NCBI GenBank assembly: GCA_017411605.1
Contig: JAFQPR010000090.1
Location: 3,761-67,760, forward strand
DNA: 64,000 nt
DNA from: Clostridia bacterium
Lineage (GTDB): Bacteria; Bacillota; Clostridia; Oscillospirales; CAG-272
Direction: 5' to 3'
Positions 9,797 through 28,486 of the stretch are shown here, piece after piece (position 1 is the stretch's first letter; the number at the start of each line of letters is the position of its first letter). Below the pieces are notes generated by a model, which saw only the letters and a list, made by a program, of their open reading frames with translations, searched no databases and was not told the DNA's origin. The position numbers were made by a program, and so were the translations under genes.

Positions 9797-11308
9797 TCAC
9801 TGCGAGAGTATAATCAGAAGAAGCATCAGTATAAGCGATGCTGCGCCGAAGAACTTCTCAATTCTGTTTCCTCTGATCAGAAGATAAACGAATGCTGCGG
9901 GGAAGAAAACTACAAGAAGCAAGAAAAATATGAGCCAATTAACGTTCCTTCCCGCAGAGGGGAGTCTTGTCCGTCTTGCAGACGGCATAGGATAGCTTTC
10001 TCCCGTCGCACCGGGTGTAACCGTGATGACAGATATCTCGCTTCGCTCGGGAAGTCTTGCGTAAACAACGTTTCCCAGCATGGCGTTTATCGTATTCTCC
10101 TCTACTCTCGGCTTATTCTCGGGATGAATGATATCCGCGTCGTTGTATCCTCTGTCGCGGAAGAATCTGTTATACGGTCTGTTCATGCCTGTTCCCGACG
10201 AGCGCGTTATTACCTGCTCGTAATAATTGCCGAAGAACTGCGAAAATCTTCTGCAGCTCTCACCCGAGGCGTGTCTTGTAACGAACACGGCATCGGCTCT
10301 GCCGAGGACGGCATCAAAAGTGCTCTCCGTTCCGAGAGTGTTCGAATACACGTCATCGGCGGAATAAACGTAATTGCATCTGCCCGAGAAGCTATATAGT
10401 ATCTCCTTAAGCTTCTCCGATGCGTTGAGCGGAAGTGACTCCATCATAATCGTAAATACAGCGCCCCTCGCGAGGAGCTCGCTGATTTCCTGCGCAACAA
10501 TATTGATAAGGTTAACGTTTGCCGCGCTCGTAAGATCAAAGGAAACGACACCGCCCGACTCAATAGCGCTCTTGATGCTCACCGATTCCCCCGCACCCGT
10601 GGCAAGAACCGATGCGGCATACGTTTGAATATGACTAAAGAAAAATTCCACGCTTCCTCTCGCGTGCCTCGTTTCCTCAATAGCGTTTCTCAATCTTCTG
10701 TAATCATCCTCGGTGATATCGCCGTAGCGAAGACGCTCATCAAGATGCAGATATTCCTCACGTCGAAGACAGGAAAGATACGACTCGACGGTAAGCGGAG
10801 TTCCTATAACCGAAAGATAACTCGTTATAACGTCGATAAATCTTGTGCCGCTGTGATCAATAGAGCTGCCGCCGTTTGCCGCGCGAACGACGAATTGCGA
10901 TATCTCCTCGCGCTCTCTGCCAAAGAACGGATTGTAAATAGGATTATCACGGCTTATGGATCTGTAGCGCGTATCAGCGCCGAAGGTCCTCGCCAGCTGC
11001 TCCTCGAGAGCGATATTTCCACTGTGTAAAATCAACACGGGTCTGCCAGCATTGCAGGAATTATACGCCGCAGATGAAAGTATTCTGCTTCTTATCTCAT
11101 CGTTTTCCCCCGAAACAACGATGTTTTCCGCTCCCGATACGGGAACGAACGCCTCTATGGGAGATGGCGTATATTCAACAACGTTTTTACCGTTAGCGTT
11201 TTCTCTCTCAACGTTTCTTATTCTGTTTCTTCTTCGGCGGTTTTCTATAGAATCCCTTATCGCTCCGAATATAAAACCGAAAATTCCCTCGCTCGCCATA
11301 AAAGTCAT
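9797..11308 (-). CDS. Degenerate (Walker-A-less) VirD4/TraG-like paralog with two C-terminal TM helices; last gene of the 15-gene operon
   Basis: Aligns by eye with the neighbouring ATPase: FTIMMESLPL vs YIFCDEFKLLP, and GRADAVFVTRHASGESCRRFSQFFG vs GFSTVLSFRANDEVSRSFTVGLHG. The P-loop position reads VLILHSGNIALE, with no GKT. C-terminus WLIFFLLLVVFFPAAFVYLLI and AASLILMLLLIILS are TM helices. An alternative start at ATG 11299 sits 9 nt after GGAGG. Confidence 0.6.
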   Translation of the reverse strand: MTFMASEGIFGFIFGAIRDSIENRRRRNRIRNVERENANGKNVVEYTPSPIEAFVPVSGAENIVVSGENDEIRSRILSSAAYNSCNAGRPVLILHSGNIALEEQLARTFGADTRYRSISRDNPIYNPFFGREREEISQFVVRAANGGSSIDHSGTRFIDVITSYLSVIGTPLTVESYLSCLRREEYLHLDERLRYGDITEDDYRRLRNAIEETRHARGSVEFFFSHIQTYAASVLATGAGESVSIKSAIESGGVVSFDLTSAANVNLINIVAQEISELLARGAVFTIMMESLPLNASEKLKEILYSFSGRCNYVYSADDVYSNTLGTESTFDAVLGRADAVFVTRHASGESCRRFSQFFGNYYEQVITRSSGTGMNRPYNRFFRDRGYNDADIIHPENKPRVEENTINAMLGNVVYARLPERSEISVITVTPGATGESYPMPSARRTRLPSAGRNVNWLIFFLLLVVFFPAAFVYLLIRGNRIEKFFGAASLILMLLLIILSQ

Positions 11309-12639
11309 CCTCCGTAAAGATCAAACTTAAATCTATAAGGCTTCTCGCCACAAATTCCGACAATAGCCTCACCCACGTCAAGACCGATAATATCCCAGTC
11401 CTCGACGGTATTTCCTACCTTTTTCTCACCCGACATATAGGTTTCGTGCTCGATATAGTAATTCTTTCCGTGCAGTCCCACCGTAAAACTTCGGCTGACC
11501 TCGTCGTTTGCGCGGAAGGACAGCACCGTGGAAAATCCTGCGGCAATATTTTTACCTCTCGACTCACCGTAGTTTTCGGTAAGCTGCTCTATCGACTGCA
11601 AGCCCGCAAAAACCTTCACTCCCATAGAACGCCCGAAATTAACGGCGTCCTCAATATGAACAAGGTCGGGAAGAAGCTTGAATTCATCGCAGAAAATATA
11701 CACGTTCCCGCACGTACCTGCGCTCACCCTGCTTTTTTCGTGAGAGCCCATAGTTTCCTTAAGGGCAAGATCTATAAGAAGCTTATAAATAGGTGTCAGC
11801 GTTGAGCCTCGGTCAAGATCGTACTCAATAAACAAGGCGCGACCGCCTCGGTTTCTTATGAATTCTCTTATTGAGAAATCTCCTCGCTTTGCGAATGAGC
11901 CGACAAGAACGTTACGTAAAACCGACTGAAGCTCCGCAAAAACACCGAGTCCCTGCGGATTTTCCCCGTCACCGATATAAGTGAGCGCCGCCTGCTGATC
12001 TCTGTATTTTGATAGCATTTCGCGAAGTCCCTTAGCGCTGAGCGTATCAAGCAAGGACTTCAGATACTCATTATCAAGATACTTGTCAATAAGCGCGGGA
12101 TCACCCCCCGCAGTTCTTACCGCCCAGGTCAGAATCGAGGCAAAAAGATCTCTTGCCGCGTTCGGGAAGAATGGGTTTGAATTATTATTCTTGATACTGC
12201 TCGAAAACAGTGACCACGATATCTCGGCAATAGCAGATTCGCACGCCTCCTTGTTTTCAAAGCCGTCTATTAATATCTCTTTAAACAAGTTCCAATTTGA
12301 CACGGTATAACCGATCATATCCACGGCGGAAATAACCGAATCATAATACGGATCGTAGAACTTCTTTATATAGTCCCCTTTTGTATCAAATATGATCATA
12401 GTATCGTTGTCGGTCATACCTCTCTTGAGCTGATCGACTATGTGGAAGAACGTATTGGTTTTTCCGCATCCGGTTCCGCCGAGCAGTAGCATATGCTTGC
12501 TCAGTATCGACCTGTCAAGCTCAAAATGAGCAGGCGTGCCGTTGCAGCTTCCCGATATTGATACCGCGGGCGAATCTATGACAGGCGGTCTGTTCTGACT
12601 TAAGACACTGCCGTATAAAACATCCGAATGTAATGCCAT
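11305..12639 (-). CDS. Soluble VirD4/TraG/TrwB-like (type IV coupling protein family) P-loop ATPase, 444 aa, no TM segment
   Basis: Walker A LLLGGTGCGKTN (about 12456-12480). IFDTKGDY. Walker B VYIFCDEFKLLP. GLQSIEQLTENYGE, the T4CP-type QS..QL...YG motif. GGAGGA SD. TAATG overlap with the upstream gene. Confidence 0.75.
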   Translation of the reverse strand: MALHSDVLYGSVLSQNRPPVIDSPAVSISGSCNGTPAHFELDRSILSKHMLLLGGTGCGKTNTFFHIVDQLKRGMTDNDTMIIFDTKGDYIKKFYDPYYDSVISAVDMIGYTVSNWNLFKEILIDGFENKEACESAIAEISWSLFSSSIKNNNSNPFFPNAARDLFASILTWAVRTAGGDPALIDKYLDNEYLKSLLDTLSAKGLREMLSKYRDQQAALTYIGDGENPQGLGVFAELQSVLRNVLVGSFAKRGDFSIREFIRNRGGRALFIEYDLDRGSTLTPIYKLLIDLALKETMGSHEKSRVSAGTCGNVYIFCDEFKLLPDLVHIEDAVNFGRSMGVKVFAGLQSIEQLTENYGESRGKNIAAGFSTVLSFRANDEVSRSFTVGLHGKNYYIEHETYMSGEKKVGNTVEDWDIIGLDVGEAIVGICGEKPYRFKFDLYGG

Positions 12640-12968
12640 TAAAATGTCCTCCGTATTATATTACTGTTGAGCTGCTCCACGCTCTGATACGGGATAAGCA
12701 GGTTGAACAGCTCAATAAGCGCGTTATCCGTCTTTTTATCGTGCTCCTCGGGGCATAGCTCGCGCGGTGTTACCGCCTTAAGCTCCTCTCTCCCGAGAAG
12801 ACAGCTATATATACTGTAAATAAGCTTATCTACTGTGCGTTCCGTCAGTGTTCCGAGCCTGACAGCATCCTCAAACTCGCGAATATCCTGCTGTACGTAT
12901 CCGGGATAAGCTGTTCTGTTTATGGATATCAAGAGCATAGCTCTTTCTATAACCTCAGCCGTTACCAT
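12639..12968 (-). CDS. Small helical hypothetical protein (109 aa); possible adaptor
   Basis: ORF track. Its ATG at 12968 overlaps the upstream stop by 7 nt, and its own stop overlaps the downstream ATG (TAATG at 12639). Confidence 0.55.
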   Translation of the reverse strand: MVTAEVIERAMLLISINRTAYPGYVQQDIREFEDAVRLGTLTERTVDKLIYSIYSCLLGREELKAVTPRELCPEEHDKKTDNALIELFNLLIPYQSVEQLNSNIIRRTF

Positions 12969-14287
12969 GGAGTATTAACGTTCGACGTGCCGTTTGAGGT
13001 ACTTCCCTCTCCGTTGCCCGAGCCATTATGCTCGCCGTCAGAAGAAGCGTTACCGACGCCGTTCTCCTCTCCGTGCCCCGAGGTACTGTCCGTACCCTCA
13101 CCGGATTCTCTTCCTCTTGCGTCAAAGCTCGCAAGAGCGCTCTCTTTATTTTCATAAGACTCACTTTTTCCGTCAGCGTGAGCAAAACGCGAAAGCTCCG
13201 ACTCGGCGGCTTCGAAATCATACGCTGAGTTGTCCTCGCCCGAGCGAAGATCTCTTGACGCAAGCTCATCCTCGGCAGTGACGACCTTTCCTTTGCTCTC
13301 GGGGGCTTCGACAGCGCCTCTGGCAATCGTTCTTTCGGTAAGCTCGTCGGCAATACCGACAGGTTTTGAAGTATTCGCCGCCATGCTCTTGTTTCCTATC
13401 GCAAACTTTTCACTCATAGCTGCGGCTTTTTCCGCCTCGACCTGATGCTTGGCACGGTAATACTCGTCCTGAATTGCAGTCTGCGTTTCTTTGAAGCTTT
13501 TTACCGCAGGCTGATCCCACTTAGTATAAACCGTGTTATCTATCATATCCCACCGTCTTTGATTACTAAGGTCACCTCTCGCATAGGATTCGTTCACCGC
13601 ATTTTCCTGCGTATATCTCATCGTGCCGTTATTGATCTTTTTATCAAAAGCTGAGCACTCGTCAATTCTTGACTCAAGATAGTTAACGTATGCCGAGTCA
13701 CCCTTCCAAAGCTCTCTATTTTGCATTACCTTGTTTGCGGCATACGTATTGCTGTCTATCTCAGAGGTACACATTCTATAATCTACCGTTGCTTTATAAT
13801 TATAATACTGACCGATAAGCGGAGCGGATTTATCAAGATACATATCTCCGCTACCGAGATGCAGATTATCCTTTGTAGTATAAAAGCTCTCAACCTCACA
13901 CATATCAAGAGTTTCTTTTGGAAGCGCTCCCTCAGGCATAGGCTTTCCCGCTCTTCGGCACTCTACGCAATGAGTCTGAAAAGCATGCTCGCCCTCGTGA
14001 TAAATCGTATCGAGCATCTCATATGGATTAATATCGTCGCGCATATTAACGGAAATAGTATTTTTATCCTCACTGTACTCGCCGAAACAACCCAATTCAT
14101 ACTTTTTGTCAAGCGGAACGACCTTGCACGGCGGTCTGCCCTGTTCCTTGGCGTTTCTGTTTTCAACCTCTTGTAAAAGATTTATTTTTTCGGATTTGCT
14201 TTTAATCTGTGCATAATTTTCCGATCTGAAGTTTTTTAAAAGCTCTTCGTCGGACTGCTTTTTGAATTTATTGAAAAATGAAAACAT
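12962..14287 (-). CDS. HExxH zincin-motif protein with a long disordered Gly/Ser/Asn/Glu-rich C-terminal tail (441 aa)
   Basis: TIYHEGEHAFQ (HEGEH codons at 13984-13998). No signal peptide. The last ~130 aa are low-complexity (…GEGTDSTSGHGEENGVGNASSDGEHNGSGNGEGSTSNGTSNVNTPW). GGAGG SD. Zero-nt gap to the upstream gene. Confidence 0.6.
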   Translation of the reverse strand: MFSFFNKFKKQSDEELLKNFRSENYAQIKSKSEKINLLQEVENRNAKEQGRPPCKVVPLDKKYELGCFGEYSEDKNTISVNMRDDINPYEMLDTIYHEGEHAFQTHCVECRRAGKPMPEGALPKETLDMCEVESFYTTKDNLHLGSGDMYLDKSAPLIGQYYNYKATVDYRMCTSEIDSNTYAANKVMQNRELWKGDSAYVNYLESRIDECSAFDKKINNGTMRYTQENAVNESYARGDLSNQRRWDMIDNTVYTKWDQPAVKSFKETQTAIQDEYYRAKHQVEAEKAAAMSEKFAIGNKSMAANTSKPVGIADELTERTIARGAVEAPESKGKVVTAEDELASRDLRSGEDNSAYDFEAAESELSRFAHADGKSESYENKESALASFDARGRESGEGTDSTSGHGEENGVGNASSDGEHNGSGNGEGSTSNGTSNVNTPW

Positions 14288-14926
14288 TTACGCCTCCGCT
14301 ACCGTGTGAACTTTCGTATCACGTATTTCACAGAGATGTATTTCAAATTTCAGTATTTTCTCAAGCAAAGGAGAAACACCTATCTCAAGAAGCTGGTTTG
14401 CGTTTTCTGTCGCAAGCTCAAACTGCTCCGTACGCCGAAGCAGATCGACTACCAAAGTTGCACTGTTAAGATCATAGGAGAGCTCGGCGTGCCGCGTCAG
14501 GCGTTCTATTGCCGCGCGGCGCGCGATAGCGGCAAGCTCGCCGTCCATAAGATCGTCGTAATGCCACGCGAGCATAAGATGCAATATTCCCGAGCGGTGC
14601 ATATCTCCCGACTTATCATAAAGATATGCCGCCATAAGGAATTTTTTTGCGGTAGCATTGAGAACGTTGTTACGACAGAGCTTTTGGTAGCCCTCTTCTT
14701 CGAGCGTCAGTCGCGTTATTCCCGCGATAGGCTTATCTACCGCGGTATTCGCGTAATGGCACTTTTCGCAAACTGTGATTTCACTATCAAGCATCGCCCT
14801 TCTCGGAAGTGGGGGACGCGTATCCAGATCCATACTTCCAAACGAGCTTATTGCCGCATATTCCTCATATGTTGATTCGGTATTGCATATAGCGCATTTT
14901 CTTTTTATACTGATTAATTTAGACAT
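14288..14926 (-). CDS. DUF2225-like zinc-ribbon plus helical-repeat protein (212 aa)
   Basis: CAIC...(x)...DLDTRP...VCEKCHYA followed by an alpha-helical region. This matches the CxxC...D.D...VCxxCxYA layout I associate with DUF2225. Confidence 0.5.
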   Translation of the reverse strand: MSKLISIKRKCAICNTESTYEEYAAISSFGSMDLDTRPPLPRRAMLDSEITVCEKCHYANTAVDKPIAGITRLTLEEEGYQKLCRNNVLNATAKKFLMAAYLYDKSGDMHRSGILHLMLAWHYDDLMDGELAAIARRAAIERLTRHAELSYDLNSATLVVDLLRRTEQFELATENANQLLEIGVSPLLEKILKFEIHLCEIRDTKVHTVAEA

Positions 14927-14959: not shown

Positions 14960-17900
14960 TTATGTTCCGGACGTACCCTTACCGCCGGTCTGACCTGAGT
15001 GAGTGTTTGATTCGTGCGTCGTTCCGTAGCCGTTTACTCCGCCGTTTCCGCCGTCACCGTCGCTGCCGTATTTGCTAAGGCCCTTACCGCCGTCACCGCC
15101 ATTGCCGCCGTTTCCGCCGGCTCCTGCCTGATATGCTTTAGTGCCTAAGGAATCAATCATTCCTATACCTCCGGCACCGCCTGCGCCTCCGTCTCCGCCC
15201 GAAGCACCGGTGGAGAACCAGCCTTTATTTCTTCCGCCTTCTCCGCCTACGCCTCCGACACCGCCTGCGCCGCCCTTTGCGGTAAGGTTTGAGTAGCCTA
15301 AAAGTCTATCGTCAATAACTCCGGAAAGAACTATGGCATTTCCGCCCTTTCCTCCGGGATTGCCGTCATCACCCGATGTAGCTGACCACCAAGAGCTGTC
15401 TTTGCCCTCGTCACCTTCGCTTCCGGCACCGCCTGCGCCACCATAAGCTTTTACGGTAACACCGGACGTAAGAGTAATGTATTTTGCGTAGATAGCAACG
15501 CCGCCGTCGGAATCTTCCGCGCCGTTTCCTGCGGTGAGATTTATCTCGCCTGAGCCCGTGAAGTTTATATCATTTGTAAATTTTGCATCTGACTTTCCGA
15601 TAACGGAGCCGCTTGCTGCAACTGTGGCAATCTCAACCTTTCCCTCGACGTTTATATTGAGTATCGCATCACATTCCCCCGAGGTCGGCTTTAATGCACC
15701 GTCGACCATAGAGTGGAAATTAAAATCAATAAAGCTTATATTCAAAATCTGTCCCGATGCAAAATCTCTGACGTTCAAGCTGAGATTTTCAAATATCTTC
15801 GAGGAATTTCCAATGAATATTACCTCTTCTACGGTATTGTATATCTCAATTATGTTATTGTTAAGACAGCCTGTGCTGCCGGCTCTTGAATACGATGAAA
15901 GATCAAGAGTCGTCACTCCCGACCAATCTATGATAACGCGCTTTGCGCTGAGATCGGGCGTGCTCTCTACCGAGGTATAAATTGCGGTTATAGGCTTTTT
16001 GGACTTCGGATAAAGAGTGATATCGAAGGGATCCTCAAGCAATGCCTCGGCATCAAACGGAACGGTAAACTCGGAGTCGAGATACCAGCCGTCAAACTCG
16101 TTATATTCGGGATAATACTTATAAGTCGGTGAAGAGAGTGTAAGCACGCTATCAACGGTAAAGCTTTCGGGATAGCTTTCTCCTACCTTCTGCCAATCTC
16201 CCATACTGTATGAGATCGAATACGATCTGATGCTCCATGAGCTTTCAAGCTCATGATCCGAGGTAATGAGCATCTGCGTACTCTCGGAAATAAGCGCCCC
16301 GTTATAGAACCAACCGTCGAAATTATATCCCTTCATTGTGAGAGCGGGAATATTGTACTCGTCACCGTAGTGTCTTACGTACTGCTTATCTCCTGCAGTA
16401 ATGATATATTCGATGGGATCCCATTTTGCGTAGAGCGTCAATTGAGGCTCTGCGTTTTCGGGAATACAGTCTATCTTGTTGGTAAACGCGGAATTTGTGT
16501 ACCAGCCTACGAATTCACTTCCTACCTTTGTGGGAGCGTAAAGAGGTATCTCATCATTGCCGGAATTATAGCTCGATACGTTTTCGATGCTATTGATACC
16601 GCCGTCAAGAACGTAGGTTATCGCATATTCGTTACTGCTCCAGAGAGCGTAAAGCGTTATATCGGCAGCTTCCATACGGAATGCCTCGCCGTTCGTATAA
16701 ACGAGTCTTCCGTTAGGAGTAAGAGCCCAGCCTAAGAAGGTGGGGTGAGTATCATTTCTGAAGAAGAGATTCTCCGAAAGATTCTGTATCTCTCCCGACT
16801 TCATAGTCTGCGATGCCATAGTTCCCTCGCCGCCGTTCGGGTTGAAAGTGACAGTATACGTATTTGCGCTCCATTTAGCGTAGAGCACGAGATTGCCGTG
16901 ACTTCCGCTCTCAATGGCGGTGATGCGTCCCGAGGTCATAGAGGGATCGGTGTACCATCCGAGGAAGGTGAAGCCCGATTTCGTAGGCTCGAGAAGCTCA
17001 ATAGTATCGCTCTCAACGTGATAAGACGTAGGATTCGACGCGTTAATTCCGCGGTCAAGCTCATACGTTATCGTATACGTATCTCTTTTCCAGATCGCGT
17101 AAAGGGTATATTCCGCATCCGTTCCCATAGTATAGGATGCGTTATCGGAATAAACTACCTCACCCGTAGGAGTTTTGCTCCATCCGACGAACGTATATCC
17201 GTTTTTGTAGAATATAGTGTTTACAGCGGGTATGTACTGCGCCGAGTCCGTGACCATCTCAATAGGATCAACTGCGCCCTCACCGCCGTTGGGATCAAGA
17301 TAAAGCTTATTTGTATTTACAATCCATTTTGCGTAAAGAACTATATCACCGAATGTGCCGCGCTCTATCGCTTGGATAGCCGTCACCATCTCGGGCTCGG
17401 TATACCAGCCGACGAAGGTATATCCCGCTCTTGCGGGTATGCCGAGAGTTATAGTATCGGACTCCACGTCATAGGCATATACGGCATCATTGCTGTTAAT
17501 ACCGCCGCTGAGAACGTAGCGGATAGTATACGAGTCCTTGCTCCATATCGCATAAAGAGTACGCGAGGGAGCGGACGTCATAAGGTATTCCTCACCGTCG
17601 GCAAGCTCTACCTCTCCGTCTGCGGTAGTGCTCCATCCGAGGAAGGTATAACCGTCCTTCTTGAATCTGCACTTATTGAGCTTAGCCGTAGCATCGGTCT
17701 TGATTATCTGATTCTGCATAGTACCGACAACGCCGTCAATGTTTGCAGAGAAGATTATCTCGTTTGAATTCGCCTGCCATACGGCATAAAGAGTCACGGA
17801 TTCCTCGTGCGACATTTTGTAGGACGCCTCGTCGGTGAAGTTGACCGAGCCGTCATACTTATAGCTCCAACCGAGGAAGGTATATCCCGGAATAGCGAAC

Positions 17901-20314
17901 GTATTCTTAGGAAGATCAAAGACCTCGTCCGTGCCCTTACTTATTATCTGCTGATCCGACTTATCTCCGTCGTTATTCGCGTTAAGTATGAGAGTATTAA
18001 TTCTCGCCTGCCATACGGCATAGAGGACCGCAGATGCGCTGCCGCCCATCGTATATGATTCGGTATCGCCGTATTCAACGGTACCCGTGGGACTCGTGCT
18101 CCAGCCGAGGAAGTCGTATCCCACTCTTACGAACGTATTTGCGGGAAGAACGGTCGATTCATCGGTCAAAAGAGTTATGCTGCCCATCTCGCCGCTGCCT
18201 CCGTTGGCGGAGAACGCAAGAGCATTCTCGTTAGGCATCCAAACGGCATAGAGAATATACTCGGATTCCGTTCCCATAACGTAGTTCGCCGTATTCTCGT
18301 ATTCGGCAGATCCTGTTTTAGTTGTGCTCCAGCCGATAAAGGTGTATCCGCTGCGTTCATATAAGCAGTCGTAGAGCGGAGCCGATTCACCCGTGCGAAG
18401 CATTTCGGGAGCCATTGTTCCCTCTCCGCCGTTTGCATCGAAGATTATGCTGTTTAAGCTTGCCTCCCATATAGCGTAGAGTACCACCTCGGAGTCCGCC
18501 GTCATTCTGTAAAGCTCACCGTCCGTATACAAAACTGTACCGTTCGGTGCTTTGCTCCAACCGAGGAACGTGTATCCCTTTAAAACGAATCCGTTCGTCG
18601 GCAGATCAAATTCTCTGTCGGTAGGCTCATCAAGCACCAAGGTATCACCCGTGCCGTTATTTGAATCAAGCGTAAGCTTATTTACTAAAGGCTCCCATAC
18701 CGCATAAAGCGTATACTTTGAATTCGTGCCCATAGTATAGCTTGCCTGATCCTCGTATACTACCTCGCCGTCGGAGCTTGTGCTCCAGCCGCAGAATGTA
18801 TAACCCGCGCGGCTGAATGATACCAACGGAAGCATAACCGAGCTATCGGTCGTAAGGCTTATGCTATCCATATTGCCCGTACCGCCGTTTGCGGAAAACT
18901 CAAGAGTATTACTGTTGGAAACCCATACGGCGTAAAGCGTATAGGACTCACCTGCGCCCATAGTATAGCTTGCCTGATCCTCGTAAACCGCCTCGCCGTC
19001 GGGCGTTGTGCTCCAACCCTGAAGACTGTATCCCTTTTTCGCGAAAACGGAGGGCTTAAGTCTTTCGGTCGCATCGGTGGCGATTTCTTGCGGTGCCATA
19101 TCACCTATACCGCCGTTCGCGTTAAAAATAACCTTGTTGATATTGGGAGTCCACTCGGCAAATAAGTGGATACCGTTCTTCTCTATAAGAGCTATATCAC
19201 CCGCTGTTACAGTATCCCCCGCTCCGTTTTTCCAAGCAGAGTTAACGTAACCCGCGAACACGAGCGTAGCAAGCTCGAAGTCATCATCAACTATTTCATA
19301 GGAAAGAGCTATACTTCTTGAGCTTCTGTATACTACCGCTCTCTCCGTATATGAGGTTTCATAAGGAATGATATTTGAAAACAGCCCGCTCCACGCGCTG
19401 TCAAGAAGATATGCGCCGAGTATCGCGCCCTTTACTCGATAGCAGTATTTATCGGTCGCCCCGACGAGGGGTGTGAGAGCATCCGAATTAAGAACTACGG
19501 TATCGAGAGCCGCGAACTTTTGGCACTCGGAGATGTCGGTCACGCTGTTATCTATAACCAACGTAGTTATCTTTGCGATATCTTCGCTTGAAAGAAGCGT
19601 TTTGTTTTCATTTTTCAGAATAGCATCGGAAAGCGCGCCCTCCGACATCTTTATCTTAAAATCTATTTCGGTCGTATTGAAAAGCTTTTCGCCATCCTTG
19701 AAGGTCAGAATTATCTTTCCCTCTCCAAGACCGACAGCCCTAAGATATATTTTGCTGCCGTCATAGGATATAAGAAATGCGTTTGTTTCTTCTCCGCTAT
19801 CCGACCTCACCTTTACCTCGCAGTAATCCTCTATATCAAGAGCGCGAGGCTTCGTCACGACGTCAAAGGCTACCAAATTATTGTAGATAGCCGTCTGCTC
19901 TCCTATCGGAAGCGCTCCCTCACCGTTGAGAACACCGTAGACCTCTGTAAGCGATGTTATTACGTTAAGCTTTACAGTTTTTTCCGTCTTCGTGTTTTTC
20001 TCATGGATCGTAACGAGTATATCCTCCGTGGGTATCTCATTTATAAGTATCTCTCCCGCCGAGGTAATACTTACCTTGCTCGAAGAGGACGTAAACGTAA
20101 ATCTCGATTCAACGGTATTACCGTCTTTATCCGTAAGATTCGGAGAGAGCTTGTAGCTCTGACCGAGATAAACGTTTATTTCATCGGCTATCGATATCTC
20201 AAATTCTTCGGTCTCGGGTACGAACTGCTCCTTAAGACTGCGGCAAGAGATAAGAGAAGATGCCAAAAGAATAAAAGCTATGAAAAGTAAAAACGTTTTT
20301 AAAGTCTTTTTCAT
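14960..20314 (-). CDS. 1784-aa surface lipoprotein: Big_2-like and LRR-like N-terminus, at least 13 Listeria/Bacteroides (Flg_new) repeats, and a C-terminal Gly-rich GGxGGxGG region
   Basis: Signal peptide plus lipobox MKKTLKTFLLFIAFILLASSLIS|C. Repeated GYTF.GWS....G...Y......Y.M......LYA.W units. The tail reads YGGAGGAGSEG...GGKGGN...GGAGGVGGVGGEGG...GGDGGAGGAGG...GAGGNGGNGGDGGKG (about 14963-15460). Confidence 0.85.
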   Translation of the reverse strand: MKKTLKTFLLFIAFILLASSLISCRSLKEQFVPETEEFEISIADEINVYLGQSYKLSPNLTDKDGNTVESRFTFTSSSSKVSITSAGEILINEIPTEDILVTIHEKNTKTEKTVKLNVITSLTEVYGVLNGEGALPIGEQTAIYNNLVAFDVVTKPRALDIEDYCEVKVRSDSGEETNAFLISYDGSKIYLRAVGLGEGKIILTFKDGEKLFNTTEIDFKIKMSEGALSDAILKNENKTLLSSEDIAKITTLVIDNSVTDISECQKFAALDTVVLNSDALTPLVGATDKYCYRVKGAILGAYLLDSAWSGLFSNIIPYETSYTERAVVYRSSRSIALSYEIVDDDFELATLVFAGYVNSAWKNGAGDTVTAGDIALIEKNGIHLFAEWTPNINKVIFNANGGIGDMAPQEIATDATERLKPSVFAKKGYSLQGWSTTPDGEAVYEDQASYTMGAGESYTLYAVWVSNSNTLEFSANGGTGNMDSISLTTDSSVMLPLVSFSRAGYTFCGWSTSSDGEVVYEDQASYTMGTNSKYTLYAVWEPLVNKLTLDSNNGTGDTLVLDEPTDREFDLPTNGFVLKGYTFLGWSKAPNGTVLYTDGELYRMTADSEVVLYAIWEASLNSIIFDANGGEGTMAPEMLRTGESAPLYDCLYERSGYTFIGWSTTKTGSAEYENTANYVMGTESEYILYAVWMPNENALAFSANGGSGEMGSITLLTDESTVLPANTFVRVGYDFLGWSTSPTGTVEYGDTESYTMGGSASAVLYAVWQARINTLILNANNDGDKSDQQIISKGTDEVFDLPKNTFAIPGYTFLGWSYKYDGSVNFTDEASYKMSHEESVTLYAVWQANSNEIIFSANIDGVVGTMQNQIIKTDATAKLNKCRFKKDGYTFLGWSTTADGEVELADGEEYLMTSAPSRTLYAIWSKDSYTIRYVLSGGINSNDAVYAYDVESDTITLGIPARAGYTFVGWYTEPEMVTAIQAIERGTFGDIVLYAKWIVNTNKLYLDPNGGEGAVDPIEMVTDSAQYIPAVNTIFYKNGYTFVGWSKTPTGEVVYSDNASYTMGTDAEYTLYAIWKRDTYTITYELDRGINASNPTSYHVESDTIELLEPTKSGFTFLGWYTDPSMTSGRITAIESGSHGNLVLYAKWSANTYTVTFNPNGGEGTMASQTMKSGEIQNLSENLFFRNDTHPTFLGWALTPNGRLVYTNGEAFRMEAADITLYALWSSNEYAITYVLDGGINSIENVSSYNSGNDEIPLYAPTKVGSEFVGWYTNSAFTNKIDCIPENAEPQLTLYAKWDPIEYIITAGDKQYVRHYGDEYNIPALTMKGYNFDGWFYNGALISESTQMLITSDHELESSWSIRSYSISYSMGDWQKVGESYPESFTVDSVLTLSSPTYKYYPEYNEFDGWYLDSEFTVPFDAEALLEDPFDITLYPKSKKPITAIYTSVESTPDLSAKRVIIDWSGVTTLDLSSYSRAGSTGCLNNNIIEIYNTVEEVIFIGNSSKIFENLSLNVRDFASGQILNISFIDFNFHSMVDGALKPTSGECDAILNINVEGKVEIATVAASGSVIGKSDAKFTNDINFTGSGEINLTAGNGAEDSDGGVAIYAKYITLTSGVTVKAYGGAGGAGSEGDEGKDSSWWSATSGDDGNPGGKGGNAIVLSGVIDDRLLGYSNLTAKGGAGGVGGVGGEGGRNKGWFSTGASGGDGGAGGAGGIGMIDSLGTKAYQAGAGGNGGNGGDGGKGLSKYGSDGDGGNGGVNGYGTTHESNTHSGQTGGKGTSGT

Positions 20315-20316
20315 CG

Positions 20317-21270
20317 TTATCCATCTCCTTTGATCAAAGTAAGCTCGCCGCCGTCGAGCTGCCAGAATCTGTTGTCAAAATCCAGCTCAACAAAAATATT
20401 GTTCTCGTTAAACACCTTCGCCTTATCGCCCGACGGATAAAAGCTTTCGCCGTGATCCGCGGCAAAGAGCGTGTTCGATATAAGAACGTTGACGTTCGAG
20501 GTTTCTCCCTCTCCCACGTCGCAGAATCTTACCGCAGCAAGAGTTGCGTTTACTTTGTTACCGTTAAGCACCTCAAGCTTCGACGTGCAGTCAAAATCCT
20601 TATAGTCTGCGGTAACGACGGCGTTCTTTACTGTTCCGTAGTTATATACGCAGACCGCGCCCGTGAACACCTTATCCTCCGCAGCATCCTCGATACCGCG
20701 GTTTACGAACACGCCGTCGGCAACGATATTACTTATCTCACCGCGGTTTGTAGTAACGAAGGGCGAGAAGGTTCCCGTACGCGTAAGTCCCGTGCTGAAG
20801 CTTACCGTGCAGTTTGAAATGCTACCCTCGTTGCAGGTTGCAACGCCGCCGTAGCTTCGGGAGGATACGTCGAATTCACCGAAAACGAAGTTGACGTTCT
20901 TTATCACAGCACCCTCGGCTACCCTGCCGAAGAGCGAAAAGCCGTCAGCGCTTCCCGAGATATTTACGTACACGGTATGACCGTTTCCGTCAAAGCTGCC
21001 CTCGAATACTCTCTCAAGACCTCCAAGGCAGATATCCGGATCCGTAACCGTAACGTCACCCACAAGCACGCACTCGTCGTTGTAAAGCGAGTCCTTATGC
21101 CTTAAAAGCTCCTCACTGTCGCGTATCACAACCGATTCCTGCTTTTCAATGTAAAACGGAATAGTACTTGCCATCTTAACATACGCAAGCAAGACGGCGA
21201 GAGTGCACATTATTACCGAAAGCGTTATAAGACGCGCTCTGTTTTTGTTTAGTTTTATATGCTTTGCCAT
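20317..21270 (-). CDS. Membrane-anchored GLUG-repeat (beta-helix-like) extracytoplasmic protein
   Basis: N-terminal TM anchor LITLSVIMCTLAVLLAYV. FEGSFDGNGHTVYV followed by repeated G.(V/I).N motifs (LFGRVAEGAVIKNVNF, YGGVATCNEGSISNCTV, NRGEISNIVA, NYGTVKNAVV). ATG at 21270 lies 1 nt after the upstream stop, with GGTGGA as SD. The ORF-track alternative is GTG at 21279. Confidence 0.55.
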   Translation of the reverse strand: MAKHIKLNKNRARLITLSVIMCTLAVLLAYVKMASTIPFYIEKQESVVIRDSEELLRHKDSLYNDECVLVGDVTVTDPDICLGGLERVFEGSFDGNGHTVYVNISGSADGFSLFGRVAEGAVIKNVNFVFGEFDVSSRSYGGVATCNEGSISNCTVSFSTGLTRTGTFSPFVTTNRGEISNIVADGVFVNRGIEDAAEDKVFTGAVCVYNYGTVKNAVVTADYKDFDCTSKLEVLNGNKVNATLAAVRFCDVGEGETSNVNVLISNTLFAADHGESFYPSGDKAKVFNENNIFVELDFDNRFWQLDGGELTLIKGDG

Positions 21271-21271
21271 A

Positions 21272-23770
21272 TCATCCACCGCCTAACAAGCTCTTAATGA
21301 AGCTTAAGTCAAGTCTGATAAAATAGAGTACAAGAAACGCAACCACGTAGCACACCATAGGTAAAATAACACAGAAGAGCGTTACCTTGTTTGCTTTTCT
21401 TGAATTTCCTTTAATCAGAAAAAAAGTCAGATTTACCGCCATTGCCAAAACGGGAATGGCAACGTGCCAAAGCTCAACAAAGCTGAGCGCACGGCTAACG
21501 AAGGATGCGAAATTAAACGGACCTGTCACAAGCGCCTGAACGAATGGCGGCGTGGCAATTAAAAGCGCCGATATAAACGCAAAAAGAAGCGACCAAAAAA
21601 ATATACCCGATCTTTTACTGCTCTTTTCTACCTTGCGGTCCATTCCGAACTCGTCTATAACAGCCTCTACTATCTTTATCTTTTGCCTCGGATTCTTACT
21701 GTCAAGCGCGCTCTCGGGGCTCTTTTTCGTAACCTTTTTCCTCGACTTTTCGGAGAAGGTTCCGTAGAGGCTCTTTGTAAAGTCTGTTCTGAATTTTTCA
21801 AATCTCGCGCTGATATTGCGTTCAAGACGCAAGCTGTCAACAAACGCCTTTAGCTCACCCGAATCTCCTACGGGAGCCTCCGAGTGAATATTATTATACA
21901 GCTCTCTCAGCCTTGCGAGAAGCTCTCTGTTTTCAAGCTGTTTGAATATAGCGTCCTTCGCAAACGATGCGTCGCAGAGTCTGGCGTTCACCTTATTTCT
22001 GAGCGCCTCATAAGGAGAGCTCATATTGTTTATTCGCTCTGATGCGGTAACGAGAGCTTCAATGCTCATATCGCCGATAAGCTCGTCGCATATCCAATCC
22101 TCTCCGAATGCCTCGCCCTCATCAAAGATAAACTCGGTAAATTTACCGTCAAGCTCATACGTACTGTCGGAGGCTCCGCTTATCTGATATATCAGCTCTT
22201 CTATCTTCTCATATACGGAGATTATCAGATTCATCTCTTCCGCGGCACCGACACCGTCCTTGTGTATCGCGCGCTTGAAGCCCTTTAATCTTATGCGTCT
22301 TCCGCCCTTGTTTGCGTCCTTAAGATACGCCGAGAGCATAAGCATAGCAAGCACCGTCACGCGGCTCTCCTCATCGGAAAGCTCTGAGATGACGTCAAAT
22401 ATTTTTTCACCGCTGTTCTGCTCTGCCAAGGGAATGACCTTATAACGGTTATTTATGTTAGAAAGCGCGACAAGCTGAGATAAATACTCGGGATAAGCCT
22501 CATCCGTGAGCCATCTCGCATTGCGCTTATCGAAAAGAGCCTTGATCAAAACTCTGAACAGCGCGTCAATTCTCACGGTATCAGCGGGTATCACGTTTCT
22601 TGCGCCGTCGAGCAAGGCGCGGAGATGATCGCTTCTGCCTATCATATAATCCTTAAGCGAGCCTATCTCCTCGGTGCTTATAACCGATAGGTTTGCTATC
22701 TTATTACCTGCAAAATCATCTGCTGTTGACACCTTTATGCTCTCATCCGACGATCTTATCCTGTTTACTGCCGCCGATTGAGAGGGCGTCATATATTCAG
22801 CCGCAAGAAGGTATCTTACGGCATCGGTAGCCGCATCGTATCCTAGAGTCTTGATCCCATCGGGCGCTTCAACGTAAGCTGAAATAAGCTTCTCTGCTGC
22901 AACACCGCCCTGCACCGTGCCGAGAGCTCTCGCAAAGGCAAACTCCTCCGACGCAATGATCATCTTTAGCATAGCGAGATCGATCTTACCGTCAATATAA
23001 ACTCTCTGAATAACGCTCCTGAGCTTTGACACGGCGTTGAAATCCCTGAGGTCAAGTGTTGATATATATTCTCCGAGCGCGCTTTGCGGCATATCGCAGT
23101 TATCCTTATGAGAAACCGAATCGATCACTGTATTGAATACGGAAAGATTGCTGTACTGCGCGCTGCTGAGCCGATTTACAAGCACGGATAAACGAAGGGA
23201 TATATTTATTCCTTCACCCGATTCCGATGTGTATCTCATTTCCTGCGAAGCAGGCGATGAAGCCGTAACAAAAAATCCCGCTTTATTCATTATTTCGGTC
23301 GGAAGAATGAAATAAAGCATTTTTAGATAGCTTTCCGCCTCCTCGTAACCGTTAACACCAAGAACAATTCCGTTTGTCTTATCGGAAAACAGAAGCTGAT
23401 CCGTAAGCTTTGCAAGAGCGCAGGCATCCGGAGCTGCGGTCGATAGGCTGATCGGGCGAGAGGTATATCTGCCCCCGCTCGTCATTCTCGCTATCTCCCT
23501 CTCGTTTATTTGCGCGAAGGAAAGGATAGGAGTTGCTTCACCCATCTCCGTATCCGCGCAGAATAATCCGTTTATAAGCTGATTGCCGTGAGAATCGTCC
23601 TCGGATCTCATTATAAGGCGGCCGCCGTCGCTTGCCACTGCGTAAAGGCAATATTCGGTCTCGCTTATCTCGTTTCTCAAATATTCCGCAAATTTTGCCG
23701 CGCCGCGGTTATTCGGATTAGTTACGTGCACGTATCCCGACGGAGTATGATAATATTTATATGAAATCAT
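21272..23770 (-). CDS. 832-aa protein of unknown family: large cytosolic helical N-terminal region plus 3-4 C-terminal TM helices
   Basis: AGGAGG SD 7 nt upstream. C-terminus GIFFWSLLFAFISALLIATPPFV, HVAIPVLAMAVNLTFFLI and VTLFCVILPMVCYVVAFLVLYFI. No catalytic motif recognised. Confidence 0.6.
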   Translation of the reverse strand: MISYKYYHTPSGYVHVTNPNNRGAAKFAEYLRNEISETEYCLYAVASDGGRLIMRSEDDSHGNQLINGLFCADTEMGEATPILSFAQINEREIARMTSGGRYTSRPISLSTAAPDACALAKLTDQLLFSDKTNGIVLGVNGYEEAESYLKMLYFILPTEIMNKAGFFVTASSPASQEMRYTSESGEGINISLRLSVLVNRLSSAQYSNLSVFNTVIDSVSHKDNCDMPQSALGEYISTLDLRDFNAVSKLRSVIQRVYIDGKIDLAMLKMIIASEEFAFARALGTVQGGVAAEKLISAYVEAPDGIKTLGYDAATDAVRYLLAAEYMTPSQSAAVNRIRSSDESIKVSTADDFAGNKIANLSVISTEEIGSLKDYMIGRSDHLRALLDGARNVIPADTVRIDALFRVLIKALFDKRNARWLTDEAYPEYLSQLVALSNINNRYKVIPLAEQNSGEKIFDVISELSDEESRVTVLAMLMLSAYLKDANKGGRRIRLKGFKRAIHKDGVGAAEEMNLIISVYEKIEELIYQISGASDSTYELDGKFTEFIFDEGEAFGEDWICDELIGDMSIEALVTASERINNMSSPYEALRNKVNARLCDASFAKDAIFKQLENRELLARLRELYNNIHSEAPVGDSGELKAFVDSLRLERNISARFEKFRTDFTKSLYGTFSEKSRKKVTKKSPESALDSKNPRQKIKIVEAVIDEFGMDRKVEKSSKRSGIFFWSLLFAFISALLIATPPFVQALVTGPFNFASFVSRALSFVELWHVAIPVLAMAVNLTFFLIKGNSRKANKVTLFCVILPMVCYVVAFLVLYFIRLDLSFIKSLLGGG

Positions 23771-23782
23771 AGCGAGTCCTCC

Positions 23783-25894
23783 TTAATTAATTACGCCAAA
23801 CTGCTTCAGCATCCATATAAACGGAAGCTCTATTCTCTGACCCGAGCAGCCGAATCTCTGCACACCGATATCGTCCTCGCTCTCTCCCACTCTGTGAATA
23901 CTGTCAAAGAAATTGAATGCGGCGATGCTGAAGAATTTAATGTTTTTGTATTTGTCAAGATTCGGCAAAAGTCCCTCGTTTATAAGATAAGACTTTATCT
24001 CCTCACTCGAATAATCTATAGAATGCTCAAGCCAGCTTCCCTCGTATCTCGAATAGGGATATGAGAGATAATCTGTTCGCAGACAATGGCAGTTAGAATC
24101 GAATTTATCTCTTAAAAGGTCCATTTTAGTAAGTATGACCGCAATGGGGCTCTCGGGATCAAGGCCTTCATTTTCCTTCGTTTTTATAGCGCTTTGTAAA
24201 GTTTCGGCTACATTTTTGAGTCCGTTGCCGTCTTTTTTACCGTTTACTATAAAGAATACGCCTATCGGAGCGCCGCCCGCGATCTTCTGCGTCATCTTCC
24301 ATTCGCTCTCGGCATTCTCACCCGCTATATCGTAGAAGGAAACGTAATTCTTACCGCCAACCTCAACGGTGAACGGAAGCTTTGTCAGAATATCCTTATC
24401 GGTGGTTGCGTTCGGGAACTTCTTTCCGACTATATCTATCGAGCGCTCGTCGTATTCCTTGCGATGCTCGGTCCAGTTCTGGTCCATCATCTTATAGCCG
24501 TGATCGTCGCTGACGAGTCTGTTTACAGAGGCAGCCTTAAGTCTGACCTTGAATTTATTCAAGCTGTTTTTGAGCATATCGCAACTCATAGAGCAGAGCT
24601 TTTTCTCACTAATAGCATCTCTGGACGAAGACATCGTTTCTTCAAGCGACGCGGTTTCGCTTATGATATCAAAGAATCTCGAGATATACGTGGTCTTACC
24701 CGAACGGGTAGAGCCTGTGAAAGCGATCTTAAAGCCCTCGTGCTCCAGGTAACCGAGTGGTAAGGTTCTCTCGAAGCTTTCTCGGAAGCCGATCTTCCCC
24801 GAATTGATTTTCAAATCATCCTGACAGTAAAGCGTGCGTTTAGCGAGCTTACCTGCGCTCGTATATATCTTGGGGTGCTGATTGAACTTAATATCAGACT
24901 CCTTACCCGCATCGTTACCCTGGCAGGAAATACCGCCGGAGAGATAATAGAAATGCTTTTTCACAAAGCTTTTAATAGGCTTATGGCAATAAGGACAGCT
25001 CAAAACCCTGGGATAAAGATAGGTAGATCTCGGAGGTATCCTTACCGATTCGTTTTTCATACTCTCGAGAAGGTAGAAGCGCTTCATAGGTTCATCCGTA
25101 AACGAAAGCGAGAACACCGCAGATGCGAGCTCGGGGTCATCGAGTCTGACAGTCGCCTCGGCAATGCCCTTTTTATTGAATATGAGCTCTATCGGATCTC
25201 CGATTCTGTTAAGAGCCGCATCTCCCGCAAGGCAAGGCAATCTGTCATTGTTGAAAACAAGATTAACGTAGATTCCAACGGGAGCATCCTTGCACTTTGC
25301 TTTTATATGTACGTTTTCACCCGATAGCTCGAGTGAGTAAAATATCTTTTTTCTGACTGTATAGTTTATCGCGAAGAAGAACTTGGCAACGAGATTCTTC
25401 TCTCTGCCCTCTCCCTTATAGTACTCGATAATTCCCGTTCCCGACTGATTGACAGCGCCCTTGTTTTCAAGAATGAAGCGGCATTTTTCCTGCCAATACT
25501 TCTCAAAGGTGATAACGGTTGTGGGCTTGAACTCGGCAACGCGGTAGGTATGCCCCTCGGCATCCGAAAGGCTCGCGCAATCTATACCCTTAACGTCAAA
25601 GGTATAAACGGCAGAGTCAAACGGAAGGGCGGAAAGGGCCTCTTTTTTGACCTCAAGGAAATCTCTTGCCGCAGCAACGGATTCTGCTCTTGACGTACTT
25701 TTATCTCCCTTGACCTTAAGGTAGATATCCGATTTTCCGTTCCATTCCTCGAAGGTCGAGAAAAGGCAATAAGTCATATTCTTATCGTAATAATCGCGTT
25801 CAAAATAGAGCTTGGGCGTAGCAATGCCGTCACTGCCAAAGACCTTTTCTATCTGATATTCAAAATAGTATTCTGCGGTCTGTACGTTACCCAT
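23783..25894 (-). CDS. P-loop GTPase (TRAFAC-type G1-G5 motifs in the C-terminal half) with a beta-rich N-terminal region and a CPYC zinc-ribbon-like element
   Basis: G1 FTGSTRSGKTT (about 24692-24718). G3 FYDIAGE. G4 ILTKMDL. G5 FSIAAF. SCPYCHKPI...GGISCQG lies upstream of the GTPase domain. I prefer ATG 25894 (AGGAGA, 6-nt spacing, overlapping the rSAM stop codon) to the ORF-track ATG 25918. Confidence 0.7.
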   Translation of the reverse strand: MGNVQTAEYYFEYQIEKVFGSDGIATPKLYFERDYYDKNMTYCLFSTFEEWNGKSDIYLKVKGDKSTSRAESVAAARDFLEVKKEALSALPFDSAVYTFDVKGIDCASLSDAEGHTYRVAEFKPTTVITFEKYWQEKCRFILENKGAVNQSGTGIIEYYKGEGREKNLVAKFFFAINYTVRKKIFYSLELSGENVHIKAKCKDAPVGIYVNLVFNNDRLPCLAGDAALNRIGDPIELIFNKKGIAEATVRLDDPELASAVFSLSFTDEPMKRFYLLESMKNESVRIPPRSTYLYPRVLSCPYCHKPIKSFVKKHFYYLSGGISCQGNDAGKESDIKFNQHPKIYTSAGKLAKRTLYCQDDLKINSGKIGFRESFERTLPLGYLEHEGFKIAFTGSTRSGKTTYISRFFDIISETASLEETMSSSRDAISEKKLCSMSCDMLKNSLNKFKVRLKAASVNRLVSDDHGYKMMDQNWTEHRKEYDERSIDIVGKKFPNATTDKDILTKLPFTVEVGGKNYVSFYDIAGENAESEWKMTQKIAGGAPIGVFFIVNGKKDGNGLKNVAETLQSAIKTKENEGLDPESPIAVILTKMDLLRDKFDSNCHCLRTDYLSYPYSRYEGSWLEHSIDYSSEEIKSYLINEGLLPNLDKYKNIKFFSIAAFNFFDSIHRVGESEDDIGVQRFGCSGQRIELPFIWMLKQFGVIN

Positions 25895-25904
25895 ATTATT
25901 TCTC

Positions 25905-26489: not shown

Positions 26490-26495
26490 CCGTGC

Positions 26496-28466: not shown

Positions 28467-28486
28467 ATTAAATCATCCTCACTTAA

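Follow-up and report, generated by a model that had tools for sequence, protein, structure and literature searches.

What does an ATPase of the type IV coupling-protein family do when it is found outside a conjugative setting? The question is raised by a 64,000-nucleotide stretch of DNA from a Clostridia bacterium (GenBank assembly GCA_017411605.1, contig JAFQPR010000090.1, positions 3,761 to 67,760 of the forward strand), hereafter called the window. It encodes a 444-amino-acid (aa) ATPase without transmembrane (TM) helices, together with a 109-aa protein and a 503-aa protein, the latter taken by an initial annotation of the sequence for a degenerate paralog of the ATPase. We found that the genes for the ATPase and its dead paralog occur together, usually side by side, as a conserved module in numerous Clostridia and also in some bacteria of other phyla. 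The 444-aa protein belongs to the TrwB/VirD4 coupling-protein family, has no TM helix, and is catalytically competent as judged by its motifs; structural modeling identifies the 503-aa protein as a catalytically dead paralog of the coupling-protein fold with a conserved SG-x5-R loop. With respect to function, we tentatively favor a role of this pair in the delivery of effector proteins.

A TM-less ATPase of the coupling-protein family

The motifs GGTGCGKT, DTKGD, CDEF, and QSIEQL..YGE, by which the ATPase had been recognized, were all found in the 444-aa translation, and a Kyte-Doolittle scan confirmed that the protein has no TM helix. It matches all three of the T4SS-DNA_transf, TraG-D_C, and TrwB profiles, with Pfam TrwB_AAD_bind reaching 131 bits over residues 47 to 387. 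The top PDB match of its AlphaFold2 (AF2) model (pLDDT 80.8) is TrwB-deltaN70 (Foldseek E value 9.6e-16, TM-score 0.66 to 0.70, about 450 columns), followed by Cag-beta and HerA. The canonical Walker A motif is present in 21 of 21 members of the ATPase family, and Walker B is likewise invariant. More than 2,500 relatives of about 435 to 450 aa exist, which, where named at all, are called type IV secretion system DNA-binding domain-containing proteins.

Compared with the equivalog models of conjugative proteins, the ATPase stays far below every curated cutoff (84.7 bits versus 521 for TIGR02759, TraD_Ftype; 64.7 bits versus 250 for NF045973, conju_CD1115). It misses three defining features of functional type IV coupling proteins: an N-terminal anchor, linkage to type IV secretion system (T4SS) or relaxase genes, and scores above the equivalog cutoffs. 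Assignment to the HerA or mad8 families was considered and rejected, as the PADLOC HerA match covers only some 50 residues around the P-loop (within residues 40 to 106), the mad8 match reaches 37.9 bits, and no cognate partner genes of HerA or mad8 are found at the locus; when these leads were followed into the MADS preprint, the matches proved too weak or too local for membership.

The partner is an inactivated paralog

The predicted topology of the 503-aa protein was reproduced, with two C-terminal TM helices at residues 460 to 478 and 483 to 501 (Kyte-Doolittle scan). Its reported alignment with the ATPase, in contrast, is statistically undetectable (BLASTP E value 5.7), and a profile-profile comparison of the two proteins was negative (hhalign probability 0.3 to 2.3%, non-collinear, using profiles of 6, 91, and 21 sequences), its power probably being limited by an ATPase profile of low diversity (Neff 2.8). 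By this sequence measure, which the initial annotation had itself proposed, paralogy would fail; structure and family-level evidence support it. We accept the paralogy despite the negative direct tests because AF2/Foldseek results and the family-level Pfam matches override them. The AF2 model of the 503-aa protein (pLDDT 93.8, pTM 0.88) retrieves TrwB first (Foldseek E value 8.6e-11, 436 columns), then Cag-beta, DotL, HerA, and VirB4. When its relatives were scanned singly, 39 of 91 matched TraG-D_C and 27 of 91 matched TrwB_AAD_bind, the best E value being about 2.5e-5, and the degenerate-paralog claim is thereby borne out. Searched against PDB sequences, the partner-family profile gave weak matches to Cag5, a VirD4 protein (E value 0.047), and to TrwB (E value 1.3). 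The 503-aa protein itself matches nothing in Pfam, NCBIfam, or PADLOC, which hold no model of the partner family. Word-indexed searches with its sequence or profile returned only two close relatives, and an exhaustive phmmer search was required to retrieve 238 representatives of the family.

The element proposed as the P-loop equivalent, VLILHSGNIALE, had to be reassigned. When the secondary-structure elements of the two AF2 models are compared in sequence, this segment corresponds to the MIIFDTKGD strand, with VLILHSGN opposite the DTKGD strand, and the degenerate P-loop of the 503-aa protein is NIVVSGENDEIRSR. Canonical Walker A occurs in only 1 of 91 partner-family members, and the P-loop lysine has been lost family-wide. 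In its place stands a near-invariant S66-G67-x5-R73 motif (S66 in 85, G67 in 90, and R73 in 87 of the 91). The Walker B aspartate (D290) is kept in 78 of 91, being Glu in the window protein, and the catalytic glutamate is absent. Family-wide loss of the motif combined with a conserved alternative loop indicates a conserved inactive variant rather than a decaying gene.

Most partner-family members are about 420 to 430 aa long and have no TM segment; the two-TM tail is confined to the subclade of the window (the window itself and loci L001, L006 to L012, L014, and L018). The suggestion of a membrane complex with a topology inverse to that of VirD4 therefore holds for this subclade but is overstated for the family as a whole. 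An N-terminal amphipathic helix was also considered as a family trait and discarded as not discriminating, since 16% of control windows have an equal hydrophobic moment.

Conservation and gene neighborhoods of the pair

One genome per species was scanned, which gave 157 ATPase relatives; 80 loci were kept, and the counts that follow are over 86 loci. Most loci come from metagenome-assembled genomes (MAGs) of gut Clostridia, others from Spirochaetaceae, Anaerolineae, Cloacimonadota, Kiritimatiellia, Verrucomicrobia, and Balneolaceae; the locus of one Eubacteriales MAG (L006) is 96% identical to the window. The hidden Markov model of the partner matches in at least 53 of 86 loci, and 41 of 56 partner matches directly follow the ATPase gene on the same strand, in many cases overlapping it or separated from it by a few nucleotides (nt). 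Clustering separates two ATPase clades: the partner is present in 52 of 57 loci of the first and in 1 of 27 loci of the second. These data support the description of the pair as a tightly linked two-gene module. A few loci carry two partner copies; in three TerY-P-type loci (L031, L038, and L039), the dead paralog is found both after the ATPase and after the kinase-vWA-PP2C triad.

Four kinds of neighborhood were distinguished. In class A, to which the window belongs, a GTPase-like gene, a large TM protein, a repeat surface protein, and a transglutaminase-like or DUF2225 gene are followed by a small protein, an HExxH protein, another small protein, the ATPase, and the TM-tailed partner. In class B, ATPase and partner precede the kinase, vWA, and PP2C genes of a TerY-P triad, with transglutaminase-like, Sel1, and TerY_C genes and sometimes a STAND NTPase or a radical-SAM protein as extras. 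In class C, they are followed by a GrpE-like gene and three Hsp70-type genes, one of them with zinc ribbon, TPR, and FN3. Class D comprises the distant, partner-less ATPase clade, accompanied by zinc-ribbon TM proteins and, at part of its loci, by a cell-wall amidase; in L054 to L083, two zinc-ribbon TM proteins are encoded upstream and, in several of these loci, an Amidase_3 cell-wall hydrolase just downstream, and the L055 region at 11834-12691 is flanked by lectin-like genes. The upstream proteins of these loci have acidic tails with YDYGYGY-like ends. TM-anchored kinases are also found among the neighbors in related loci. The array that contains the pair in the window (9797 to 34925) carries no TerY-P triad of vWA, PP2C, and kinase in profile scans; many class B loci have one, and the vWA genes of the window (45409-50020) belong to a MoxR/DUF58/BatA set.

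This setting is not that of a conjugative element. Among the window ORFs scanned (open reading frames), we found no VirB4, VirB6, or relaxase family, as previously stated, and no match to an integrase family; the further statement that no other T4SS parts occur does not hold, because the window encodes a second TM-less coupling-protein-like protein of 568 aa (Table 1). No T4SS-channel or relaxase cluster recurs in the 86 loci, where not all singleton genes are annotated. The best plasmid relatives, at 34 to 35% identity, are carried by non-mobilizable megaplasmids and have no T4SS genes in their vicinity, phage records contain no relatives, and 2 of 2.9 million viral contigs carry one. The composition of the window is unremarkable. 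As the pair recurs beside conflict-system modules and not beside conjugation genes, the proposal that it was repurposed from conjugation machinery is reasonable.

The second coupling-protein-like gene keeps the same gene order on three contigs. Upstream of it is a gene for a 244-aa protein of no assigned family (55292-56026, minus strand), and downstream (45409-53359, minus strand) are a 503-aa N-terminal-TM protein, MoxR (AAA_3), DUF58, BatA-vWA, and vWA genes. No match links this other 503-aa protein to the family of the dead paralog.

Cargo-like neighbors with clade-specific C-terminal ends

The initial annotation overlooked that the triad is the tail of a longer array and that neighboring proteins resemble cargo with C-terminal signals. 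In several loci, a SUKH-1 immunity gene (PF09346, 5e-17) followed by a Tox-GHH nuclease gene (PF15636, 3e-24) is found directly 5' of the ATPase; a compact example with SUKH, Tox-GHH, ATPase, and partner is L023 of Murdochiella massiliensis. In these Tox-GHH proteins, the toxin domain is N-terminal and a long low-complexity tail is C-terminal, the reverse of the layout of classical polymorphic toxins, which have the toxin domain at the C terminus (PMC3482391). In several architectures, the position just 5' of the ATPase is held by relatives of the 441-aa HExxH protein of the window. An alignment of 18 sequences of this family shows H97, E98, H101, Q104, Y170, and E176 to be invariant; no PDB relative was found by profile, and one member has a weak match to DUF6782, a putative metallopeptidase family. 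The gene for the 212-aa DUF2225-like protein is always upstream of this HExxH subfamily (in the window, L006, L007, L012, and L014); its product is a candidate inhibitor, immunity protein, or chaperone. Scans of Pfam, NCBIfam, and PADLOC gave no family match for the 109-aa protein; its positional counterparts are 10 to 18% identical, have a common layout, and end in IRR, VVRR, KKRR, GIIR, or GQGIKI. In the loci checked, a Kyte-Doolittle scan showed no N-terminal hydrophobic, signal-like segment on the toxin-like proteins.

What these upstream proteins of many unrelated families have in common is a tail rich in Ser, Gly, Asn, Gln, and Glu that closes with a short terminal motif. A terminal G[QI]x[RM] was found in 20 of 1,444 ORFs, against about 0.7 expected from a rough estimate based on residue frequencies, and these cases fall into at least six unrelated families, nearly all within the clusters. 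The ends furthermore differ between the ATPase clades. Where a partner is present, 34 of the 48 proteins encoded just 5' of the ATPase carry Arg at one of the three terminal positions (background 13%), and none closes with aromatic-Gly. Of the 27 counterparts in the partner-less clade, 13 have an acidic tail with a Y/F-G-Y end of the YxYGYGY kind (background 3%), a difference (Fisher p = 5e-9) whose significance is overstated because the loci are phylogenetically non-independent.

Further regularities were noted. Class A tails of HExxH and c17 proteins (L001, L007, L008, L010, L012, L014, and L018) carry two to five copies of x[FY]F[DE] at a spacing of about 19 residues, for instance SYFD four times in L012; in the tails of the TM-tail clade the motif occurs at 0.78 per 100 aa, against a background of 0.17. 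The window 441-aa protein has degenerate copies at residues ~366 to 393, namely SRFA at 366 and ASFD about 20 residues on. Nearly all TerY-type vWA proteins encoded beside the pair (L004, L016, L019, L021, L025 to L042, and L049) end in an acidic stretch and then Trp as the last residue or close to it, such as ...DDDWGGDWD, ...FDSGW, or ...VPSDW, and the window HExxH protein ends in ...NTPW. Such ends might represent another type of terminal peptide signal.

A model for effector delivery and its rivals

Coupling proteins recognize C-terminal signals on T4SS substrates. By analogy, we infer that the active ATPase, forming the ring motor typical of its family, would recognize the disordered C-terminal tails with short, clade-specific terminal motifs on proteins encoded next to it and would thread or hand over these tailed proteins. 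In the window, the 441-aa HExxH protein and the 109-aa protein are the putative substrates, to which the Tox-GHH nucleases with their SUKH immunity proteins would be added in other loci. The dead paralog would act as a dedicated partner or adaptor of the ATPase, in the subclade of the window its C-terminal TM hairpin would tether the motor to the membrane, and the upstream NTPase, kinase, or chaperone modules would set the timing. In this scenario, the pair belongs to a conjugation-independent translocation module of a conflict system, serving antagonism or defense, that delivers effectors to or across the cytoplasmic membrane, the only membrane of these monoderm bacteria. Delivery to or through the membrane is favored because of the SUKH immunity genes, the lack of a signal-like segment on the toxin-like proteins, the TM hairpin of class A, and the cell-wall amidase beside the partner-less clade, and we give this reading slightly less than an even chance. 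A more specific version, rather unlikely as a whole, would be a stand-alone "coupling-protein-only" export route of monoderm bacteria that operates without a T4SS, recognizes tails, and exports Tox-GHH and HExxH toxins against competitors, with the dead paralog as a membrane adaptor and with gating by kinase, GTPase, or Hsp70.

Several observations weigh against delivery. No channel-forming component was identified, and the ATPase and most partners lack TM segments. The window 441-aa protein does not end in the common motif, and the statistical weight of the terminal ends is reduced by the relatedness of the loci. Many recurring neighbors (TerY-P, STAND NTPase, Hsp70/GrpE, and GTPase-like proteins) have been predicted, or demonstrated in other studies, to counter invaders within the cell (PMC11090510, PMC7159879), and one related locus adjoins type I restriction-modification and AbiE genes. 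Finally, the only conserved arginine of the partner family is R73, which lies in the degenerate loop, leaving no candidate for an arginine finger; an alternating ring with arginine fingers acting in trans is therefore not favored over a stacked or adaptor arrangement, and a hetero-hexamer of the 444-aa and 503-aa proteins is not established.

The main rival, somewhat unlikely in our judgment, places the pair inside the cell, as the trigger or the unfoldase of a system of the abortive-infection type. The pair would then sense or act on invading DNA, or unfold co-encoded effectors or strip inhibitors from them inside the cell, and would set off a nuclease- or peptidase-mediated abortive response under TerY-P, GTPase, or Hsp70 control. 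Such a switch would fit the link of the pair to TerY-P triads, since TerY-P-like modules are reported, in work cited in PMC11090510, as stand-alone antiphage systems. The Hsp70/GrpE-like and kinase/PP2C/vWA themes recur in GTPase-centered conflict systems (PMC7159879), PMC11090510 interprets in this way FtsK-like ATPases that lack TM helices, occur with small helical proteins, and have vWA genes at their flanks, and the ClpB-like protein of the array matches PADLOC candidate-defense models. The STAND NTPase, restriction-modification, and AbiE genes of related loci and the lack of TM helices in all ATPases and most partners point in the same direction. A SUKH gene beside a nuclease, surface proteins with repeats plus Hint modules, the class A hairpin, and the amidase of the partner-less clade, however, are better suited to export. 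A DNA sensor would also leave the clade-specific C-terminal ends unexplained, although the unfoldase variant would account for them.

Could the tails instead have nothing to do with the ATPase pair? They might be substrates or handles of the transglutaminase-like proteins, cross-linked or cleaved at a Gly-Gln end, or simply flexible linkers, with the pair serving an unrelated role such as the assembly of a membrane-proximal scaffold. The transglutaminase-like gene is present in 33 loci (BLAST cluster 2, other members of which bear recorded PF01841 matches) and ranks third by frequency among the families of the 86 loci, behind ATPase and partner, and many tails end in K-G-Q-x-R/M, with both Gln and Lys. 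However, the terminal motif varies with the ATPase clade, and the partner-less clade, which has the aromatic-Gly ends, mostly lacks a transglutaminase-like gene, so that this explanation appears improbable.

Still further from our expectation is the reading that the ATPase is an orphan coupling protein belonging to an element that has decayed or is mobilizable, and that it transfers DNA or proteins by docking on a T4SS encoded elsewhere: it is a genuine member of the coupling-protein family, conjugative relatives of similar length exist (the 442-residue clostridial "VirD4-like conjugal transfer protein, CD1115 family" of NCBIfam), integrases lie near some related loci, and the window has its second coupling-protein-like gene, but this reading is very unlikely because the conserved companions are a dead paralog and signaling genes and because DNA-transfer-and-replication (Dtr) and mating-pair-formation (Mpf) genes are absent, to which the 64-kb window without a relaxase, VirB4, VirB6, or integrase match among its scanned ORFs, the low equivalog scores, the normal composition, and the plasmid relatives of at most 35% identity on non-mobilizable replicons may be added.

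Relation to known systems

With the type IV coupling proteins (TrwB of R388, TraD, VirD4/Cag-beta, and DotL), both proteins share the fold, composed of a nucleotide-binding and an all-alpha domain. The C-terminal substrate signals of those systems find a counterpart here in the clade-specific ends of neighboring proteins. The ATPase differs from them in having neither an N-terminal TM domain nor genes for a T4SS channel or relaxase beside it, in its obligatory association with a dead paralog, and in its setting among signaling and conflict genes.

The closest described situation is that of the TM-less FtsK/EssC-like and VirB4-like ATPases, accompanied by WXG100 or small helical proteins, in TerY-P/CoCoNuT loci (PMC11090510; Anantharaman et al. 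2012, as cited in PMC4978471). Common to both are a pump of the FtsK-HerA superfamily, partly inactive domains, a small operonic protein, and vWA, PP2C, and kinase flanks. There, in contrast, the ATPase is of the EssC/VirB4 type and its inactive module is fused as a tandem domain, while here the inactive module is a separate gene and the type is TrwB/VirD4; the McrBC/CoCoNuT core is absent here, and the 109-aa sequence has no WxG motif. For those ATPases, too, secretion or another mechanism was left open (Bell et al. 2024, PMC11090510). The 444-aa ATPase is likewise distinct from the type VII WXG100/EssC module, being a single-domain TrwB-type protein and not a multidomain EssC.

The GAP1-N2 DO-GTPase systems (Kaur et al. 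2020, PMC7159879) have in common with these loci the Hsp70/GrpE-like, kinase/PP2C/vWA, repeat surface, and TM core themes; ATPases of the TrwB or VirD4 type do not appear in that paper, and the GTPase-like and 832-aa proteins of the window match DO-GTPase2 and GAP1-M faintly or not at all. EssC, with an active D1 and degenerate D2/D3, and the HerA defense complexes (Sir2-HerA and DUF4297-HerA) are examples from the same superfamily of ring ATPases that work with a partner that is inactive or is itself an effector, but HerA is a lower-ranked fold match and no Sir2, nuclease, or DUF4297 partner is found here. Our literature searches turned up no account of either the pair or the tail motifs.

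Coupling proteins are standard components of conjugation and of type IV effector delivery. Our results describe a clade of them, widespread among gut Clostridia and present in further phyla, that has abandoned this machinery and gained a family-wide inactivated paralog as a fixed partner, amid toxin-like proteins with common C-terminal ends. If the proposed model is correct, it would extend the known uses of the coupling-protein motor, provide a sequence rule for cargo in gut bacteria in the form of disordered tails with clade-specific terminal motifs, and add a new component to the poorly understood TerY-P, Hsp70, and GTPase-centered conflict systems.

The array and other genes of the window

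The three minus-strand ORFs of the triad were confirmed at 9797-11308, 11305-12639, and 12639-12968 (503, 444, and 109 aa), and the same genes appear in independent gene calls on ena:ERZ28019354:k141_289986 (84.6 kb). The overlaps reported at the two junctions are present, ATGA between the 444-aa and 503-aa genes and TAATG between the 109-aa and 444-aa genes, and the first 7 nt of the 109-aa gene are shared with the end of the 441-aa gene. At the start of the 503-aa gene (11296-11308, minus strand), the first ATG immediately abuts GGAGG, and an in-frame ATG at codon 4 has better Shine-Dalgarno spacing, of 9 nt. The true start may therefore be codon 4, giving a product of 500 aa, in which case the ATGA overlap would become a short gap.

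With the triad, an array of 15 co-directional genes closes at its 3' end; it spans about 25 kb, from 34925 to 9797, with intergenic gaps of 0 to 33 nt (Table 1). From its first gene, the order is transglutaminase-like, ClpB-like AAA+, unknowns of 177, 748, and 656 aa, Fer4_12/radical-SAM-like, GTPase-like, 832-aa C-terminal-TM, 320-aa TM, 1784-aa repeat surface, DUF2225-like zinc-ribbon, 441-aa HExxH, and the triad. The 320-, 832-, and 711-aa genes keep their order across class A loci. The 711-aa GTPase-like protein has only faint matches (G-alpha, E value 7.5e-4; DO-GTPase2, E value 0.13), and a profile scan gave no GAP1 match for the 832-aa protein; their syntenic relatives in L001 bear faint recorded DO-GTPase2 and GAP1-M matches. 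A relative of the 1784-aa surface protein in L010 has a Hint module with 28.1 bits, just below the Pfam cutoff. The ClpB-like AAA+ protein (859 aa; 31271-33850, minus strand) matches the PADLOC candidate-defense models PDC-M37B (97 bits) and DolB (71 bits) in its AAA_2 domain only. Within the triad, promoter and terminator scans stayed at background level, and the window contains no tRNA, no Rfam family, and no compositional island.

Table 1. Positions of the pair, its array, and a second coupling-protein-like gene in the window
Feature	Coordinates	Strand	Basis
444-aa TM-less coupling-protein-family ATPase	11305..12639	-	Pfam, AF2, Foldseek; Walker A GGTGCGKT, Walker B CDEF
503-aa dead coupling-protein-fold paralog ("pT4CP")	9797..11308	-	AF2/Foldseek; N-terminal hydrophobic-then-basic helix, C-terminal two-TM hairpin
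109-aa small protein ending ...NSNIIRRTF	12639..12968	-	Positional family, fast-evolving, basic C-terminal end
441-aa HExxH (zincin-like motif) protein, candidate effector/cargo	12962..14287	-	C-terminal low-complexity tail of ~110 aa
212-aa zinc-ribbon/DUF2225-like protein	14288..14926	-	Pfam DUF2225, E value 1.1e-4, 22.4 bits versus cutoff of 21
1784-aa surface protein	14960..20314	-	Signal/TM helix, 13 Listeria-Bacteroides repeats, Gly-rich C terminus; Pfam Flg_new 398 bits
320-aa N-terminal-TM, 832-aa C-terminal-TM, and 711-aa P-loop GTPase-like proteins	20317..25918	-	TM predictions, faint GTPase matches
194-aa Fer4_12/radical-SAM-like protein; 656-, 748-, and 177-aa unknowns; 859-aa ClpB-like AAA+ protein	25905..33850	-	Fer4_12 104 bits, AAA_2 144 bits
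351-aa transglutaminase-like protein, first gene of the array	33870..34925	-	Pfam Transglut_core, E value 3.4e-4, below cutoff
Promoter-like TTGACA-17-AATAAT with TG, 5' of the array	34981..35009	-	11/12 consensus match only
568-aa second TM-less coupling-protein-like protein	53582-55288	-	T4SS-DNA_transf 108 bits, TraG-D_C 87 bits

Elsewhere in the window, very large secreted or lipoprotein-like proteins without a Pfam match are encoded on the minus strand at 1-4654, 37180-41418, 41529-43388, and 43889-45412. They contain repeated Cys/His-rich motifs such as HEHxYVDGKCECG, and one of them, of at least 1,551 aa, runs out of the left end of the window. Unrelated to the pair, a gene for a 50-aa SCIFF peptide with six cysteines (60775-60927, minus strand) is located just 5' of its radical-SAM maturase gene (Fer4_12/Radical_SAM; 59299-60675, minus strand).

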